From assembly GCA_965198235.1 (NCBI GenBank), contig OZ240248.1:1248001-1312000 (forward strand): a stretch of 64,000 nt of DNA, written 5' to 3'. This DNA is from Candidatus Poribacteria bacterium (lineage in GTDB: Bacteria; Poribacteria; WGA-4E; WGA-3G). The position numbers were made by a program, and so were the translations under genes. The notes under the pieces were generated by a model. The model saw only the letters and a list, made by a program, of their open reading frames with translations, made no database searches and was not told the origin of the DNA. Shown here piece by piece: positions 2,147-19,454 of this stretch. Position 1 is the stretch's first letter. Each line of letters starts with the position of its first letter.

Positions 2147-3704
<1,558 letters not shown>

Positions 3705-4965: not shown

Positions 4966-5039
4966 GGGCTTATAGCTCAGACGGTTAGAGCGCGCGCCTG
5001 ATAAGCGCGAGGTCCCTGGTTCGATTCCAGGTAGGCCCA
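4966..5039 (+). tRNA. tRNA-Ile(GAT); CCA not encoded
   Basis: GGGCTTA acceptor pairs with TAGGCCC-A; D arm TAGCTCAGACGGTTAGAGC; anticodon arm CGCGC-CTGATAA-GCGCG; T arm CCTGG-TTCGATT-CCAGG. Confidence 0.95.
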
Positions 5040-13165: not shown

Positions 13166-14659
13166 TCAACCCATCACCTGCCAAATTGGCTCCGCGCCCT
13201 CAACACCGACGAGTTTCTGATCTAAACCGCCGTGGAAGTAAGTGAGTCGATTCGGGTCAATCCCGAGTTGATGAAGGATTGTTGCATGCAGATGCTTGAC
13301 ATGAAACGGATCCGTGACCGCCGCGCTACCGAGTTCATCGGTCTCACCAACGCTCATACCGCCTTTGATCCCGCCGCCCGCTATCCACATTGTGAAGCCG
13401 TAGGAGTTGTGGTCACGCCCTGTGCCTTTGGCGTACTCTGCTGTCGGCTGACGACCAAATTCACCGCCCCAGACAACGAGTGTTTCATCGAGTAGCCCGC
13501 GTTGTTTGAGATCTTTAAGCAACCCGGCAATCGGTTTATCAGTCGCCTTGGCATGCTTGTTGTGGTTTTTCTCAATGCCGTCGTGTGCGTCCCAATTGTC
13601 GTCATTATGTGCGCCGCCAGAGTAGAGCTGAATGAACCTAACACCCCGTTCAACCAACCGTCTCGCCAAAAGGCATTTCGTGCCAAACTCCTCCGTCTCC
13701 TTTTCATTGACCCCATAAAGTGCTTTAATGTGCTCCGGCTCGCTATCCAAATCTACTGCTTCCGGCGCCGTAGACTGCATCTTGTAGGCTAACTCATAAC
13801 TCGAAATTCGAGCTGAGAGATCGGTGTTGTCGGTGCGTTTGGAGAGATGGGTCGCATTGAATTGGCGCAGATAATCGAGTAGCCTGCGCTGTTCGCTTCG
13901 GTTCATGTCGTTCGTATGCTCCAAATCGAGAATCGGTGCACCTTCCGAACGGAAAACCGTACCTTGATAAACGGCGGGCATATACCCGCTACTCCAGTTC
14001 TTCGCGCCGCTGATGGGACCACCTGTCCGGTCAAGCATCACAACGTATCCCGGAAGATTTTCGTTCTCACTGCCGAGTCCATAATTCACCCAAGATCCGA
14101 GCGACGGATGACCACTCAACACGCGACCTGCGTTCATCATCAGCATCGCGGAACCGTGCAACGGTGAGTCTGCAGTCATTGACTTAATAAAGGCGATGTC
14201 ATCAACGCAGGTTGCGAGGTGTGGGAAAAGCCCTGAGACCCACTGTCCTGATTCGCCGTACTGGTTAAAATCCCACTTAGGACCAACGATACGTCCCTCT
14301 GATCTCTCACCACCGCGTCCTTTCGTTTTGACTTGAACGGTCTTGTCGTTGAGTTTGTACAAAATCGGTTTGTAGTCGAAAGTATCAACATGGCTTGGAC
14401 CGCCATACATGAACAGGAAAATCACGCGCTTCGCCTTCGGTGTGAAGTGCGACGGTTTAGGCGTGAGAGGATTAAGATACGGTGTCACGCCATCTGCAGC
14501 GACGGCTTGTGAATCGAGAAACCCGTCTGTGGATAGAAGTCCTGTCAACGCAAGCGATGCGAAACCGCCAGCAATGTTGCCGATAAATTCTCTGCGTGTC
14601 TGACCACAAAAGGCACCTTTTGAATTTGTATCTCTCTTGGTCTTAGATTGACTGTTCAT
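13166..14659 (-). CDS. DUF1501 domain protein with twin-arginine signal
   Basis: TRREF Tat motif, AKRVIFLFMYGGPSHVDTFD, LARRLVERGVRF, WD-x-H, GEFGR-x-P, GRDH. Confidence 0.9.
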   Translation of the reverse strand: MNSQSKTKRDTNSKGAFCGQTRREFIGNIAGGFASLALTGLLSTDGFLDSQAVAADGVTPYLNPLTPKPSHFTPKAKRVIFLFMYGGPSHVDTFDYKPILYKLNDKTVQVKTKGRGGERSEGRIVGPKWDFNQYGESGQWVSGLFPHLATCVDDIAFIKSMTADSPLHGSAMLMMNAGRVLSGHPSLGSWVNYGLGSENENLPGYVVMLDRTGGPISGAKNWSSGYMPAVYQGTVFRSEGAPILDLEHTNDMNRSEQRRLLDYLRQFNATHLSKRTDNTDLSARISSYELAYKMQSTAPEAVDLDSEPEHIKALYGVNEKETEEFGTKCLLARRLVERGVRFIQLYSGGAHNDDNWDAHDGIEKNHNKHAKATDKPIAGLLKDLKQRGLLDETLVVWGGEFGRQPTAEYAKGTGRDHNSYGFTMWIAGGGIKGGMSVGETDELGSAAVTDPFHVKHLHATILHQLGIDPNRLTYFHGGLDQKLVGVEGAEPIWQVMG

Positions 14660-14713
14660 CGCCTCATCTCCAATGTTAGCGTCCCTGCTTCGCAGCAGCG
14701 AAAACAGGTCGTC

Positions 14714-17611
14714 TTAATCCAAAAAGATAAATTCATTTAAATTCAATGCCAATAACGCAAATCGGTCGAGTGCTACTTCTGAATTCACGCCCTCGTGCTG
14801 CTGAAGTTCTTGCATGAAGGTCAACGCTTGTTGAATCTCTGTTGGCTCCGGTTCACGACACAATACAAGCCGCAGCCCAAATCGCACACGATCTTCGACC
14901 GACACACCACCTTCCCACCGCATCCTGTTGGCGAAAGCGAGTGCTTGATCGTTGATAAATTTCCCGTTGAGCATAGTCAGCGATTGTGTCGGCACCGTTG
15001 TCGAAAAACGGACCGGACATGTCGAATCGGTGTTCGCTTGGTCGAATTGGTTCAGAATAGGGACGAGCAACGAACGCTTGACCTTCACATAAACACTGCG
15101 ACGGTTTGCCTCATCCGGCGGTGATTGTCCCCAAACACTCCTTGGTCTTGAGGACGTTGCCAACACCTCTTTCGGTAGTTCAGGAAAAACACTCGGCCCT
15201 CCCATTTTGAGGTTCAGTTTCCCAGTGATCCAGAGTACTGTATCCCGAATCTCTTCTGCAGTCAAGCGACGCATGTCGAATCGCCAAAAGAGATCATTGT
15301 TCGCGTCCTGTTCAACGCATCTCGGATTGCTCTGTGCCGACATCCGATATGCATTCGAGGTCATTATCAACTTGTGCATTGCCTTTAACCGCCAGCCAGA
15401 CGCAATGAATTCAGACGCGAGCCAGTCGAGAAGCTCTGGATGTGTCGGGCGTGTACCGAGCTGTCCGAAATCGTTGGTTGATCGGACAATCCCACGTCCG
15501 AAGTGGTGTTGCCAGATGCGATTGACCATCACCCGGGCTGTCAGTGGGTTCTCAGCACTCGCCACCCATTTCGCGAAGATACGCCGTTTTCCAGATAATT
15601 TTGCCTCCTTTGGAATAGGCGGCACGTCTACAACAGGAAGGTTCAACACCGCAGGAAATGCCGGTTTAACCTCACGTCCGACGAGGTGCGGATTGCCACG
15701 TCGTAAGATGTGCGTCGGTGTCTGCTTGCTCTCTGAAACCGCTAAAACCTGATGATCGTAAGGCACACGCTGTCGCCGCCGCTGATCCCGCTGTTTTTTT
15801 AACTCCTTCTGTTCATCGACTAACGCCTTCAGCGATTCGTTCGTTTCAATAAGTGCTGCGTGTGTTTTGAGCAACTCGCCAAAATTGACTGTAGTGTTTG
15901 TTGAGAGTGGCTGTTTCTCAAAACTCGCTCCAGACCACCAAACCTCCAGATGCGGGTTATCTAAATCTTTATTGAAATACTCAAGACGAATCGGCACATC
16001 ACCACGCATGAGTGCAATTTCCACGTCTCGCTCACCGATCAATTCAGCGACCTTATAACTATTGAGAATCAGTCTACAGGTGCCGTGCAGATTAATATGT
16101 AACGTATAAGTCGCATCTTCTGGTACCCGTAACGTTCCTTCAAAAACCAAGCCGATGTCTTTCTTTCTGCTGGCAGGTGCAAGTGAGAATAGGTTGCTAA
16201 ACAATCTACCTTCGGCAGTAGGTTCAAGGAGATCAAAATCATCAGGAAACTGCTCAAAGGTGCCGCGATAGAAGCGATATGTCAGATCACGCATCGGGGA
16301 CACTGGAGCATCAGGCACTATCTCCTCTGAAATATTTTTAGCAAGTTCGATTTTGATGATTTCTTGTATCTCAAAGAGTTTATTCTGTGCTTCTTGTTCG
16401 GCGAGTCGCTTTTCAGCGAGTTGCTTATCACGTACTGCCTGCTGTTCAGGGGTACCGATGTCGGCAAGCGGTCCGCGGTTGTTAGGCGTGATGTCATGGA
16501 AAAACGCGAGCAGACTATAATAATCCCGAGTCGAAATCGGATCGATTTTATGGTCGTGGCATCGGGCGCAACCGATTGTCATACCGAGCATCACCTGCCC
16601 TGTTGTCGAAACAATATCATCAAGATAGTCGTACCGCGCGAGTTTCCGATCGGCAGGTCCATCGTCCCAAACACCGAGTCGGTGATACCCGGTCGCAATG
16701 AGGGTCTCTGTAGTTACAGCATCCAGTTCATCCCCCGCCAGTTGCTCCTTGATGAATTGATCATACGGCTTGTCTTTATTGAAAGCGTTAATGACGTAAT
16801 CGCGGTATCGCCAGACATAGGGCTTGTCTGAATCGCTTTCATAGCCGTTTGTCTCGGCATAACGGACAAGGTCGAGCCAGTGCCGTCCCCACTTCTCACC
16901 ATACCGTGGAGACTTCAGGAGTTTATCGATTAATTTTTCATAAGCGTCGGGTGCTGTATCGTTCAAGAACGCCTCCACCGCTTCAGGTGAAGGTGGTAAT
17001 CCTGTGAGGTCGTAGTATACCCGACGAATCAGTGTCAGTTTGCTGGCGGGTACGGCTGGCATTAAACCGTGTGCCTCCAGTTTTGCGAGAATAAACGCGT
17101 CGATCGGGTTACTGACCCAATCCGATGCGTTTACCGACGGCACTTGCAGTCGTTTTAGCGGACGATATGCCCAATAATCTGATCCTGTTTTAGAAATCGG
17201 TTGCACGTCGGTATCTTGAACGGGATAGGGGAGTCCTATGTTAATCCATTTCGCTAAAATCTCAAGAGCAGCAGCATCTAACCTACCGTCCGGTGGCATT
17301 TGTGCAGTCTCTTGACCGTACCCGACCATCTGCAGCAAGAAACTGTCAGCGGGGTTTTCTAACGACACCGCAACTCCATAATCCCCACCTTTGAGGATCT
17401 TTTCCCGACTCGTCAATTGGAGTCCACCCTCCACTTCAGCCCCCTCGCCGTGGCATTGGAAACAGTTTTGTTCGAGGACGGGTTTCACTTGAGAATTGAA
17501 GAATTCAACCTTTTCTGCATCACTCAGATTATTCGCGTAACCGATATTGAGAAAAGTCAGCGCGCACAGAAAGGCTATGGCAAGAAAACGGGAACGATGA
17601 GGATGTTGCAT
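14714..17611 (-). CDS. Planctomycete-type cytochrome c / DUF1549 (PSCyt2) / PA14 / DUF1553 (PSD1) protein
   Basis: CFQCH and CARCH heme motifs, [45 protein letters not shown]; internal PA14-like segment. Confidence 0.9.
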
Positions 17612-17792
17612 AGTCGCCTCCGTTCAAAAGTGACACTTCGGAACGCTTTAAGCGGGTGAAAGACCTTTTGAACCACGATACATTGCCATCAATTCTAAAG
17701 AAATCGATTGTCTATTTGACGTGAATTCGACTTAAGGGTTTAGTGGGATGTTGGGTTTCACTTGCGTTCAACCAACCTACGTCTCCATTACC

Positions 17793-19349
17793 CTACGACG
17801 ATGCTTCTGACTCTCCTGTTTCCGCTGGTACGACAGAAATCCGCGCCAGAAAAGCGTTGGTGCTTCCCTTCTTACAGAACCAATTACCCGTCGCGCCTAA
17901 CTTAAACCGTTGTCCGCGTTCAAACTGGTGAAGGATTTGTCCTGTGTCGCCGGGCGAAATATCCCATACGGAAGCCAGTGCTTCGTCTGGAAACCCTTCT
18001 GTCGGTAGTTCAGCATCGCCAGCAAACAGGTCAAACGAACCCGTCGCCTCACCCGCACCTACCTGTATATTAAGGATCAGGGTTCCGCCTTGCTCAAAAG
18101 ATGTGGTATCAATCTCGACAGTTGTATAATCCTGATAACCGTCTCCGGGTCCACGAAAAACGTTCAAAACCTCCATCACCTCTTGCGGCGAACTGAGGTC
18201 TAATTCTGACACCGATTTCTCTTTGTTCTCGTTGGCGGGGTTTGTAACCTCGCCTTTCGCAACGTCCGCTAACAGTGTTAAATATCTTTGTGCCGGATTG
18301 CGGCCCGGGAGTTGGTTTTCTGGTTGGTGCATTATAATCTCACCTTCAGGATTCAGCACCTGAATATCCACCGCACCGACGTAATGATCTTTGAGTGTTT
18401 TGGCGAAAACACTGACGCTGTCCTCGTCTGGATCGTCTACCAATTCTGCCAAATCGCGAAAGAGCACCCAAGTATTCACAAAATTCTCGTTGAGGGTTTT
18501 GATGATTTCTGATTTCGAGAGCGGACCCGCTCTCAAGTTCTTACCGTTCGCTCAGCAAGATTCATCGTCTAAGGGACCCCAGGAGAGGACTGCATGGAGC
18601 GGACGCTGCGTCGCCTCCGCTTTTTCGACTGCTTCCTCGAGCGGCAGCCAGTTAATTTCAGCGGATTTGTAGAACTTCAATTCCAATCTTCTGCGTGCCC
18701 CTTCGGATGTGATAGCACTTTCCCACGCAATGCCGTCCCGGGCTTCTGTCGAGGTGGCATGGAGTTTCATACGTGGTACGAAGACCATATCAGCATACCC
18801 AAAGTCATTGATGTCTACATTGCTATTGCGTGGCGGAAGTGTGAGGGAAAAGTCACAAATAACACCGGTCTTCAAGTTGATTAGCAACTGTCCGGCATAT
18901 TGCGATGGAATAAATCGGGCTCTTTGCACATGATCCTCATCGGCATCGGGTTCCGATCCCGGTTTAGGGCGGATCGCCAAAGTAAACTCCGCATGAATTC
19001 GGAACGTGATGTCGGCATAATCCGGTGAAAGTGCGCGTAAGCAGGCGAAAGCCCCCTTCTGCCCGTGACGTAACTCGCCTGTAGCGCCCGGGTGAAACTG
19101 CGAAAGAAACGGGATAACGCTATCCAGATCCAGTTCCCAAACATCTCCAACTGCTACAGTTGACGCGGGGAGAAAAGCGTTGAAAGCCTGTCCGTTATAT
19201 TCTCTAATAGGTTCGTTTGGCGATAGATCAAAGAGTTGAATGTTTTCTGGTTCTTTGTGTAGATTGTGAGTCGCATCGGAGATTGGATCCCAATGCGCAT
19301 GGACTTGTAAAGGTGCTGAATTCTTCAGGACATTGTTCATATCTATCAC
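17793..19349 (-). CDS. Selenoprotein N (SELENON)-like selenoprotein; UGA at 18554-18552 read as Sec
   Basis: ORFs 18552-19397 and 17793-18536 are in one frame, separated only by TGA plus 5 sense codons: WGPLDDESC-U-ANGKNLRAGPL. SECIS-like hairpin follows. Start GTG 19349 (7 nt after GGAGG) or ATG 19340. Confidence 0.85.
18515..18536 (-). promoter_or_regulatory. Bacterial SECIS-like hairpin
   Basis: mRNA UUGAGAGCG-GGUC-CGCUCUCGA, starting 15 nt after the UGA; G-starting apical loop 24 nt from the UGA. Confidence 0.75.
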
Positions 19350-19454
19350 TGGTTTTCCTCCATTGCATAACTTGCTTATAAACGTTCTCGGATGCACTTT
19401 TTACCGATGTTCAGATCTTTTGTGGGAGGGGTTTGTAACCCCGACTCTTTATGT

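Follow-up and report, generated by a model that had tools for sequence, protein, structure and literature searches.

Redox regulation of SERCA in the lumen of the endoplasmic reticulum (ER) is a property of animal selenoprotein N (SELENON or SEPN1), and bacteria have no ER. In the literature that we searched, SELENON is a selenoprotein of animals and, according to the accessible part of one source, of a few algae (PMC7539508); little has been settled about its biochemical substrate or its structure, and congenital myopathy follows when it is lost. Its selenocysteine (Sec, U) lies in an SCUG sequence within a thioredoxin-like motif, as stated in the accessible part of a review (PMC12839072). 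Here we present a locus from a Candidatus Poribacteria bacterium (assembly GCA_965198235.1, contig OZ240248.1, positions 1,248,001 to 1,312,000 of the forward strand). This stretch of 64,000 nucleotides is referred to as the window, and positions without a contig name are those of the window. Comparative analysis indicates that the locus is very probably a single gene encoding a 518-residue bacterial homologue of SELENON, in which an in-frame UGA would be read as Sec by means of a hairpin within the coding sequence (CDS).

No description of a bacterial selenoprotein N (SelN) was found in the literature searched, to which supplementary tables and subscription papers may still add one. The coverage included the 2022 and 2026 reviews of prokaryotic selenoproteomes, the database BSepDB, the marine selenoproteome of the Global Ocean Sampling (GOS) and the 2026 SelN review, each to the extent of its accessible text. 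Within that extent, no bacterial SelN appears in BSepDB (PMC13326102), PMC13188914, PMC2398784, PMC12839072, PMC7539508, PMC9312934 or PMC11227280, and the terms 'SelN' and 'selenoprotein N' have 0 occurrences in the accessible text of the GOS survey (PMC2398784).

Two open reading frames (ORFs) on the minus strand, 18552..19397 and 17793..18536, lie in one common frame. The first ends in ...PLHAVLSWGPLDDESC / ...LHAVLSWGPLDDESC, followed by TGA; with this TGA read as U, the translation continues as a single open frame, ...DDESC-U-ANGKNLRAGPLSKSEIIKTLNENFVNTWVL. An earlier note, made from the letters of the window alone, had proposed that the two ORFs are joined by the codons TGC-TGA-GCG into a protein of about 518 residues that keeps the SC-U redox motif. 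Translation and reading of the junction confirmed the joint, with the UGA at 18554-18552, and the motif at this gene is SC-U-A. The read-through CDS occupies 17796..19349 on the minus strand and has 518 codons, including one UGA for the predicted Sec at residue 266; from sequence and translation, the true stop is the TAG at 17793..17795 (-). The model starts with a GTG at 19349, with GTG 19397 and ATG 19340 as alternatives. Since orthologues carry an ATG at the column of 19349, the 518-residue model is favoured and the proposed length stands. The expectation that annotation pipelines would split the gene also proved correct: database entries of ~281-303 residues, named 'hypothetical protein [Candidatus Poribacteria bacterium]', stop exactly at ...DDESC.

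The read-through protein has no match at E <= 1 in Pfam (models to 2025), NCBIfam (June 2026) or the PDB sequences. Against 1.84 billion cluster representatives (clusters at 50% identity), phmmer returned 692 matches at E <= 1e-3, 430 at E <= 1e-10 and 71 at E <= 1e-30. Among the best 150 of the 692, which were listed, nearly all appear to be bacterial fragments, and two are animal proteins, from Vombatus ursinus (E 2.8e-24) and Nematostella vectensis (E 2.6e-23). A profile built from the wombat and Nematostella proteins retrieved 305 proteins, the top 120 being vertebrate entries; most of these are named 'Selenoprotein N', 'SELN protein' or 'selenoprotein N-like' in NCBI and UniProt, and one is from Homo sapiens. 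In the BLASTP comparison with wombat SELENON (E = 2e-30), the alignment runs through the Sec site for 246 columns, of which 31% are identical (query residues 97-310, animal residues 259-490). In the reverse search, the SELENON sequences of wombat, Nematostella, coelacanth, lamprey and human each matched 205-211 of the bacterial proteins collected, with best E values from 1.4e-34 to 4.6e-43 and alignments of up to 416 columns. These alignments begin at query residues 67-100, and on the animal side from about residue 117-260. Where the bacterial partner is a fragment of ~300 residues, the alignment stops with the fragment's last residue and, on the animal side, with the Cys that precedes Sec. 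The Sec column and its flanks coincide between bacteria and animals, in the form WG.LDD.SC-U-..G+.LR.

Similarity to SELENON on both sides of the TGA, which the earlier note had put forward before any search was run, was thus recovered by phmmer, by BLASTP and reciprocally (to 5e-43). The upstream blocks that it had aligned (F-x-P-S-Q-x-x-G, NVD, P-x-M-x-L, W...A...LE and LP...A..A.A) are all seen in the BLASTP alignment with animal SELENON. The human motif that it had given fared unevenly: vertebrate sequences agree with the flanks, and the U itself is absent from those database models. All of the public vertebrate SELENON models examined (P0254, P0260, P0279, P0303, P0310, P0321, P0365, P0367) are wrong at the Sec codon, the U being dropped, replaced, or followed by intron-like sequence.

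The likeness might be one of a generic thioredoxin fold rather than of a family, and several observations can be read in this way: no Pfam or NCBIfam model joins the two groups, the Foldseek neighbours are generic thioredoxin-fold proteins with modest E values (best 5.5e-5), and ~35 genomes of the Planctomycetota phylum match weakly, in the thioredoxin segment only. However, the alignments extend over 246-416 columns and include ~150-200 residues of an N-terminal domain upstream of the thioredoxin part, their E values of 1e-24 to 5e-43 are far past fold-level similarity, each direction of search retrieves the other group specifically, and the Sec column matches together with its flanking motifs. 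Because the homology includes the N-terminal domain besides the thioredoxin part, it is of family level, and we consider a likeness of fold alone to be extremely unlikely.

The window gene is not a singleton. It is one of five copies in its genome, each with exactly one in-frame TGA, and the family also occurs in Planctomycetota. In a sample of 61 genomes of the phylum, 45 have matches, up to 26 per genome; by family, matches were found in 35/36, 5/6 and 4/11 genomes, and in 0/7 of the genomes of the five remaining families together. Among the matches listed, all but four rows contain a TGA; of the four, two do not extend as far as the site, and in the other two, both Gly forms, the TGA is replaced by GGA or GGC. 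From the fetched loci of the phylum, with duplicates removed, and two loci from outside it, we assembled 40 distinct homologous genes. All 40 carry TGA in the column of the UGA at 18552..18554 (-), and in all 40 the frame beyond it is open and conserved, at 36-77% identity. The preceding TGC, at 18555..18557 (-), encodes an invariant Cys, proposed as the selenenylsulfide partner of Sec, and the codon itself is identical in 615/615 divergent sequence pairs. Sec forms with the same hairpin also come from a Planctomycetota metagenome-assembled genome (MAG) and from one metagenome contig. Six genomes in a 151-genome sample of the phylum of that MAG have full-length copies (E <= 2e-70), with one TGA each. 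Some 35 genomes of the same sampled phylum (e.g. L074-L081) match at E 1e-11 to 1e-4 over the thioredoxin/Sec segment only, most of them with a TGA; they may belong to further families of thioredoxin-fold selenoproteins in which Sec has similar surroundings.

Of 95 bacterial protein rows reaching the site, 83 terminate right at it, the gene call having stopped at the TGA; the others have Cys (5), Gly (4), Thr (1), Ala (1) or Trp (1). The Cys forms (P0128, P0150, P0151, P0171, P0217) read ...SCCGSGK or ...ACCATGK, and the DNA of one of them has TGC. Scanning with the Cys forms yielded one locus in the genome collection, itself a Sec form, and four in metagenomes, namely one Sec form, one Cys form and two without a match to the motif. 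Relatives had been expected to conserve either TGA or Cys at this position, and both were found; homologues that end at the TGA, or carry Trp or Arg there, would have counted against the proposal of the note. The frame is open beyond the TGA in 40/40 genes, and one of the 95 rows has Trp. Overall, this is the pattern by which true bacterial selenoproteins are normally recognised in sequence comparisons.

In the window, 10/32 long ORFs end in TGA, which therefore serves this organism as a normal stop, and a genome-wide reassignment of TGA was rejected on this ground. The ordinary use of TGA also fits a locus of two separate genes, or a pseudogene, in which translation would truly stop at the TGA, leaving a downstream ORF that is either expressed by itself or decaying. 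Gene callers and NCBI do annotate 'hypothetical proteins' of ~281-303 residues to ...DDESC together with downstream pieces of ~240 residues, and a TTG start is available at 18536. Yet the frame across the TGA is open and conserved in 40/40 genes from two phyla, Cys and Gly forms exist as full-length single proteins, animal SELENON aligns across the TGA, and the predicted thioredoxin fold is complete only across it, with beta1 before and alpha1 and the rest after. Two independent genes were rejected on the conserved frame and the completion of the fold, and we regard a real stop at this TGA, in either version, as very unlikely.

The machinery that Sec decoding by the single gene would need is present, a point that the earlier note had listed for checking: selA, selB, selD and the tRNA for Sec all score above their curated cut-offs. 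The scores are 348 bits for selB (cut-off 242), 592 for selA (268), 360 for selD (125) and 78 for tRNA-Sec (47); the last adjoins selB and is called by ARAGORN as tRNA-SeC with anticodon TCA. Neither selA nor selB has an in-frame TGA. The selD gene, at G000:C1:3115227-3116150 (L012), also encodes a selenoprotein; its one TGA lies at the canonical site ...KCAG-U-ASKLAPGEL.

Alternatively, near-cognate decoding or a variant code could make the UGA specify a standard residue (Trp, Cys or Gly). At this column, non-Sec relatives have Gly, Trp or Cys, plain read-through might in principle be promoted by the hairpin, and one contig of an RNA library carries a GAUC variant of the hairpin loop. Set against these are the full Sec machinery with a TGA at the canonical site of selD, the use of TGA as a stop in 10/32 long ORFs together with its absence in frame from selA and selB, and the position itself, which is the redox-active site of a thioredoxin fold and, in the accessible part of PMC12839072, the known Sec site of animal SELENON. 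We consider decoding as a standard residue to be quite unlikely, if slightly less so than a true stop.

A hairpin of the form UUGAGAGCG-GGUC-CGCUCUCGA, of 9 bp including one G-U pair, follows the UGA within the CDS. The earlier note had described this element, giving 9 bp, a GGUC loop and a distance of 24 nt from the UGA, and it was confirmed at 18536-18515. It resembles a selenocysteine insertion sequence (SECIS) and occupies 18515..18536 (-), with the 5' arm at 18536-18528, the loop at 18527-18524 and the 3' arm at 18523-18515. The stem begins 15 nt after the UGA and the loop 24 nt after its A, and a 7-bp core of the stem is conserved. A hairpin is found at the same offset in 40/40 sequences, in which the 54 nt from the UGA align without gaps. 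The sequences fall into two classes. Class 1 (26 sequences, including the window gene and both sequences from outside the phylum) has a 7-bp stem and a GGUC loop; 97.8% of its 182 cells are paired, versus 34.6-68.1% if the partners are displaced by 1-3 columns. Class 2 (14 sequences) has a 6-bp stem in another register and an AGUU or AGGU loop, with pairing in 97.6% of 84 cells versus 46.4-79.8% on displacement.

The stronger case comes from synonymous sites. Over the 615/780 sequence pairs that lie below 55% amino-acid identity, identical residues use identical codons at a frequency of 0.43 gene-wide versus 0.62 over the hairpin codons, where the values are 1.0 for Gly, 0.90 for Pro and 0.95 for Leu. 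When 182 windows of seven codons were ranked for codon constancy, the top 8 all fell at -5 to +9 codons of the UGA.

Several results weigh against these conclusions. Compensatory changes are few, 2 cells of 182 in class 1 and 2 of 84 in class 2, those of class 2 being G-C to A-U at a pair of two third-codon positions; moreover, 8-10 of 500 shuffles equal the observed covariation, and related sequences can give such a pattern without structure. The fold energy of -14.7 kcal/mol is unremarkable (z = -1.43), 13/200 shuffles folding as well. Rfam gave only chance-level matches around the UGA, and nowhere in the window did a SECIS family reach the gathering score. Conserved codons (L-R-A-G-x-L-S) overlap with the stem, and in the comparison meant to tell constraint on the RNA from constraint on the protein, the TGA-less forms available as DNA, two Gly and only one Cys, still pair, the hairpin of the Cys form being weaker (-7.6 vs about -12 kcal/mol). 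One RNA-library contig has G>A at window 18526, so that its loop reads GAUC instead of GGUC and its codon U+9 encodes Asp instead of Gly; the variant removes the GU of the loop, which we take to be the contact of SelB. A hairpin found by eye after the UGA of this genome's selD has a different spacing, is weak and is not the minimum-energy fold. Contigs of an RNA library are no proof of transcription, and the support for selenium incorporation, for a read-through peptide and for SelB binding is in each case comparative. As the energy of the hairpin lies within the range of the shuffles, the signal above chance lies in its conservation; from the sequence comparisons, its identity as the SECIS is well supported but not proven.

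The RNA-library material came from public runs. In a metatranscriptomic run labelled 'sponge metagenome', 84% of the sampled words of the stretch are present. A 1,941-nt contig of the RNA library spans 17700-18813, across the UGA, and differs from the window at one base, the G>A of the loop; a second contig matches 18898-19347 without a difference. A joint in run X2 that skips 18254-19419 was disregarded, having 22 letters on its shorter side, runs X11-X20, with small word shares, were not counted as evidence of habitat, and no meaning was attached to uncovered bins in run X1.

For the whole protein, AlphaFold2 with a 35-row alignment produced a model of mean pLDDT (predicted local distance difference test) 88.4 and pTM (predicted template modelling score) 0.71, comprising three domains. 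The N-terminal beta-rich domain (~residues 1-200, 18750..19349 (-)) has its homologue in the stretch of animal SELENON ahead of the thioredoxin-like part. The second domain (~residues 215-365, 18255..18707 (-)) is assigned from the model and Foldseek to the alpha/beta thioredoxin fold, with the C-U centre between beta1 and alpha1. The third is a predicted C-terminal beta-sandwich (~residues 389-508, 17826..18185 (-)). The whole three-domain model gave mostly generic beta-sandwich matches in Foldseek, with TM-scores normalised to the query (TMq) of ~0.15; since this is uninformative for the core, the Sec domain was modelled separately (pLDDT 87.5, pTM 0.83). Its matches in the PDB to rank 50 are nearly all of thioredoxin fold, with probability ~1.0 and TM-scores normalised to the target (TMt) of 0.5-0.67. 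They include Thioredox_DsbH 7tkv (E 5.5e-5), 3ira, ERp19 1sen, AGR2, AGR3, DsbH 2ju5, the C-terminal domain of DsbD (1vrs), the UAS domain of UBXD7 (2dlx) and thioredoxins. In the model the C-U pair occupies the position of the thioredoxin CxxC, between the first strand and the first helix; this clade reads SC-U-A and many paralogues SC-U-G. The C-terminal sandwich resembles GOLD and collagen-binding-type sandwiches in Foldseek (TMt 0.5-0.63). Animal SELENON lacks it, as do the shorter paralogues (372-385 residues), and it is also found behind BlaR1-type M56 and S9 peptidase modules.

These features suggest the following scheme. SelA, SelD, tRNA-Sec and SelB would decode the UGA at 18554-18552 as Sec, with SelB, judging from conservation, recruited by the in-CDS hairpin 15 nt past it. 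The N-terminal beta-rich and thioredoxin-fold domains would form the core shared with SELENON, the C-terminal sandwich being specific to bacteria. By analogy and from the predicted structure, the protein most likely acts as a thiol/selenol oxidoreductase, with a Cys-Sec selenenylsulfide as the intermediate of its cycle. It would reduce client proteins at oxidised cysteines (disulfides, sulfenic acids), in line with the proposal for animal SELENON.

Proteins of the clade of the window gene have no signal peptide and no hydrophobic N-terminus, so they are probably cytoplasmic. Hydrophobic N-termini are present in several paralogues and in the Planctomycetota copy, and the paralogues with signal peptides probably act in the periplasm. 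Two kinds of fusion were found. A paralogue at G000:C1:1798438-1799772 (L026) and its orthologue L053 carry a C-terminal Redoxin/AhpC-TSA domain (E 1e-20), possibly a built-in redox partner; at the usual CxxC position this domain reads W-S-G-F-C, with a single Cys. In P0036, P0126, P0171 and P0114-P0121, an extracytoplasmic function (ECF) sigma factor (Sigma70 r2 + r4) stands N-terminal to the SelN module; P0171 has a hydrophobic segment between the sigma and SelN parts, a layout resembling a one-protein sigma/anti-sigma sensor. Both fusions are consistent with the proposed chemistry and fit a role in redox relay and sensing.

As far as sequence comparison goes, the family has many members, most of them with Sec, and in this phylum it occurs in multiple copies. 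Its paralogues often stand in tandem arrays of three to five genes, such as G000:C1:5037523-5047156 (L024, L025, L028), G024:C1:2395644-2400237, G026:C123:6376-14530 and G049:C38:59771-72654. A few of the matches listed contain two TGAs, and in P0003 (541 residues) the post-Sec half of one module runs without a stop into the pre-Sec half of the next; together these suggest two-module proteins with two Sec residues. In the alignment, P0002 (374 residues, 80% identical) is without roughly residues 165-325, including the Sec site, apparently through an in-frame deletion or an artefact of the gene model in a related genome.

The earlier note had asked whether such a gene in a probable sponge symbiont reflects transfer from the host or bacterial ancestry. 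A quick, unrooted tree (IQ-TREE, LG+G4) was built from 100 rows over the N-terminal 240 residues (238 columns), with branch support by the Shimodaira-Hasegawa-like approximate likelihood ratio test (SH-aLRT) only. Its eukaryotes are five animal sequences, Nematostella and vertebrates, without a sponge, alga or protist SELENON, which counts against what is concluded here on ancestry. The five animals form one clade (SH-aLRT 100) with a long stem that attaches inside a bacterial group of 41 rows (97), and the bacterial clusters nearest to them are named only 'hypothetical protein'. The window protein lies in the other group, of 59 rows, with the sequences named Candidatus Poribacteria. The non-Sec forms are scattered tips.

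A recent transfer of SELENON from a sponge host to the symbiont would fit the origin of the closest named homologues in Candidatus Poribacteria, which are sponge symbionts, and the presence of the stretch in 'sponge metagenome' runs; as the tree has no sponge SELENON, a donor outside the cnidarian-vertebrate clade is conceivable. But all bacteria fall outside the clade of Nematostella and vertebrates (100), the animal stem sits in one bacterial super-group (97) and the Poribacteria with this gene in the other, and the bacterial diversity is large, with 692 clusters at 50% identity. The family also reaches six genomes of the Planctomycetota phylum and further metagenome contigs, and the bacterial genes have an in-CDS hairpin and extra domains of their own and no EF-hand region. 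The placement of the bacteria outside the animal clade, the distance of the symbiont sequences from the animals and the size of the family speak against a recent host-to-symbiont transfer, which we judge unlikely. On the question raised by the note, the phylogeny thus argues against recent transfer, for a set of five animals that does not include a sponge. The evidence points to a family that is old in bacteria and may have been the source of the eukaryotic gene.

The surroundings of the gene are unrelated. Upstream lie a class-IV aminotransferase, a HisF-like gene, MurJ and ThiD, all housekeeping functions, and downstream a PSCyt/DUF1553 + DUF1501 pair, with intergenic gaps of 245 and 181 nt flanking the gene. 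The pair, directly downstream at 13166-17611 (-), consists of a 965-residue PSCyt1/PSCyt2/PSD1 (DUF1549/DUF1553) protein and a DUF1501 protein; such pairs are typical of Planctomycetes-like genomes. Farther off, the window contains a complete bacterial 16S rRNA gene at 2147-3696, followed by one tRNA at 4966-5039. Rfam found no 23S or 5S rRNA reaching the gathering score in the remaining 60 kb of the window, so the rRNA genes appear unlinked.

What would be new here is a known eukaryotic family in another domain of life, with bacterial decoding, extra domains and a large paralogous expansion. The bacterial family offers tractable models for structure, substrate trapping and Cys-Sec chemistry, and its ECF sigma and redoxin fusions point to partners and a sensing role. 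It would add to the bacterial selenoproteome a major mis-annotated family, whose genes are routinely split into two 'hypothetical proteins', and would change the view of where a human disease gene comes from, to a probable origin in bacteria.

Compared with animal SELENON, the bacterial proteins share a homologous core of ~250-400 residues, made up of the N-domain and the thioredoxin-like domain, and a Sec column after an invariant Cys, with SC-U-G in many bacterial paralogues; in both, Sec forms outnumber Cys forms. They differ in having no N-terminal transmembrane segment and no EF-hand region: Pfam found no EF-hand or other family in the window protein, and the alignments start downstream of the EF-hand stretch of the animal protein. 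Sec insertion depends on a SECIS in the 3' untranslated region (3'UTR) in animals, whereas in the bacteria it would depend on the in-CDS hairpin. The bacteria add the C-terminal beta-sandwich, multiple copies and both probable cytoplasmic and exported paralogues, and this clade has SC-U-A.

Among bacterial selenoproteins of thioredoxin fold, the Sec-containing Prx-like, Trx-like and DsbA-like proteins, as far as the accessible part of the GOS survey describes them (PMC2398784), likewise have a UGA with a downstream hairpin, SelB and Cys homologues, and they share the kind of fold and a probable thiol-redox role. Their motifs are CxxU or UxxC, in contrast to the adjacent C-U and the large N-terminal domain shared with eukaryotes in the present family. 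The nearest solved folds are those of Thioredox_DsbH/DUF255-type and ER thioredoxin-fold proteins (7tkv, 3ira, 2ju5, 1sen, AGR2, 2dlx; TMq 0.47-0.55, TMt 0.5-0.63), which differ in their identity of 9-22%, their modest E values and the lack of a phmmer match in the PDB sequences. We know of none among them with a C-U centre. The SECIS of Escherichia coli fdhF reportedly is a hairpin shortly past the UGA with an apical loop GGUC, of which the G and U are said to be the contacts of SelB; by this account, the loop in the window gene lies ~6 nt farther from the UGA.

Mammalian thioredoxin reductase, with GCUG, also has an adjacent Cys-Sec pair capable of forming a selenenylsulfide, and the accessible part of a review likens the SCUG of SELENON to it (PMC12839072). 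In the reductase the motif is on the flexible C-terminal tail of a flavoenzyme, whereas here it is predicted between beta1 and alpha1 of a thioredoxin fold. Finally, SEPN1 itself has a selenocysteine redefinition element (SRE), an RNA hairpin of small size in the coding sequence adjoining the UGA (PMC8584023), with pathogenic variants at G463, R466 and R469, that is, at U+1, U+4 and U+7 (PMC3541580). The bacterial hairpin spans codons U+6 to U+13, and its Arg at U+7, always AGR, lies in the 5' arm. Both are thus in-CDS hairpins by the UGA, and U+7 is the Arg codon of the bacterial 5' arm; the SRE differs in acting with a 3'UTR SECIS and eukaryotic factors, and the structural correspondence is hypothetical. 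As a speculation that we hold to be rather doubtful as a whole, though less so than any of the alternatives considered above, animal SELENON might derive from an ancient bacterial selenoprotein family, with the SRE as a vestige of an in-gene SECIS; the radiation in Poribacteria-like genomes, with up to 26 matches per genome, might then consist of selenium-based cytoplasmic and periplasmic redox enzymes and sensors tied to ECF sigma and redoxin domains. The comparison suggests a testable link: the SRE hairpin of human SEPN1, which is relevant to disease, may be connected with the bacterial SECIS.

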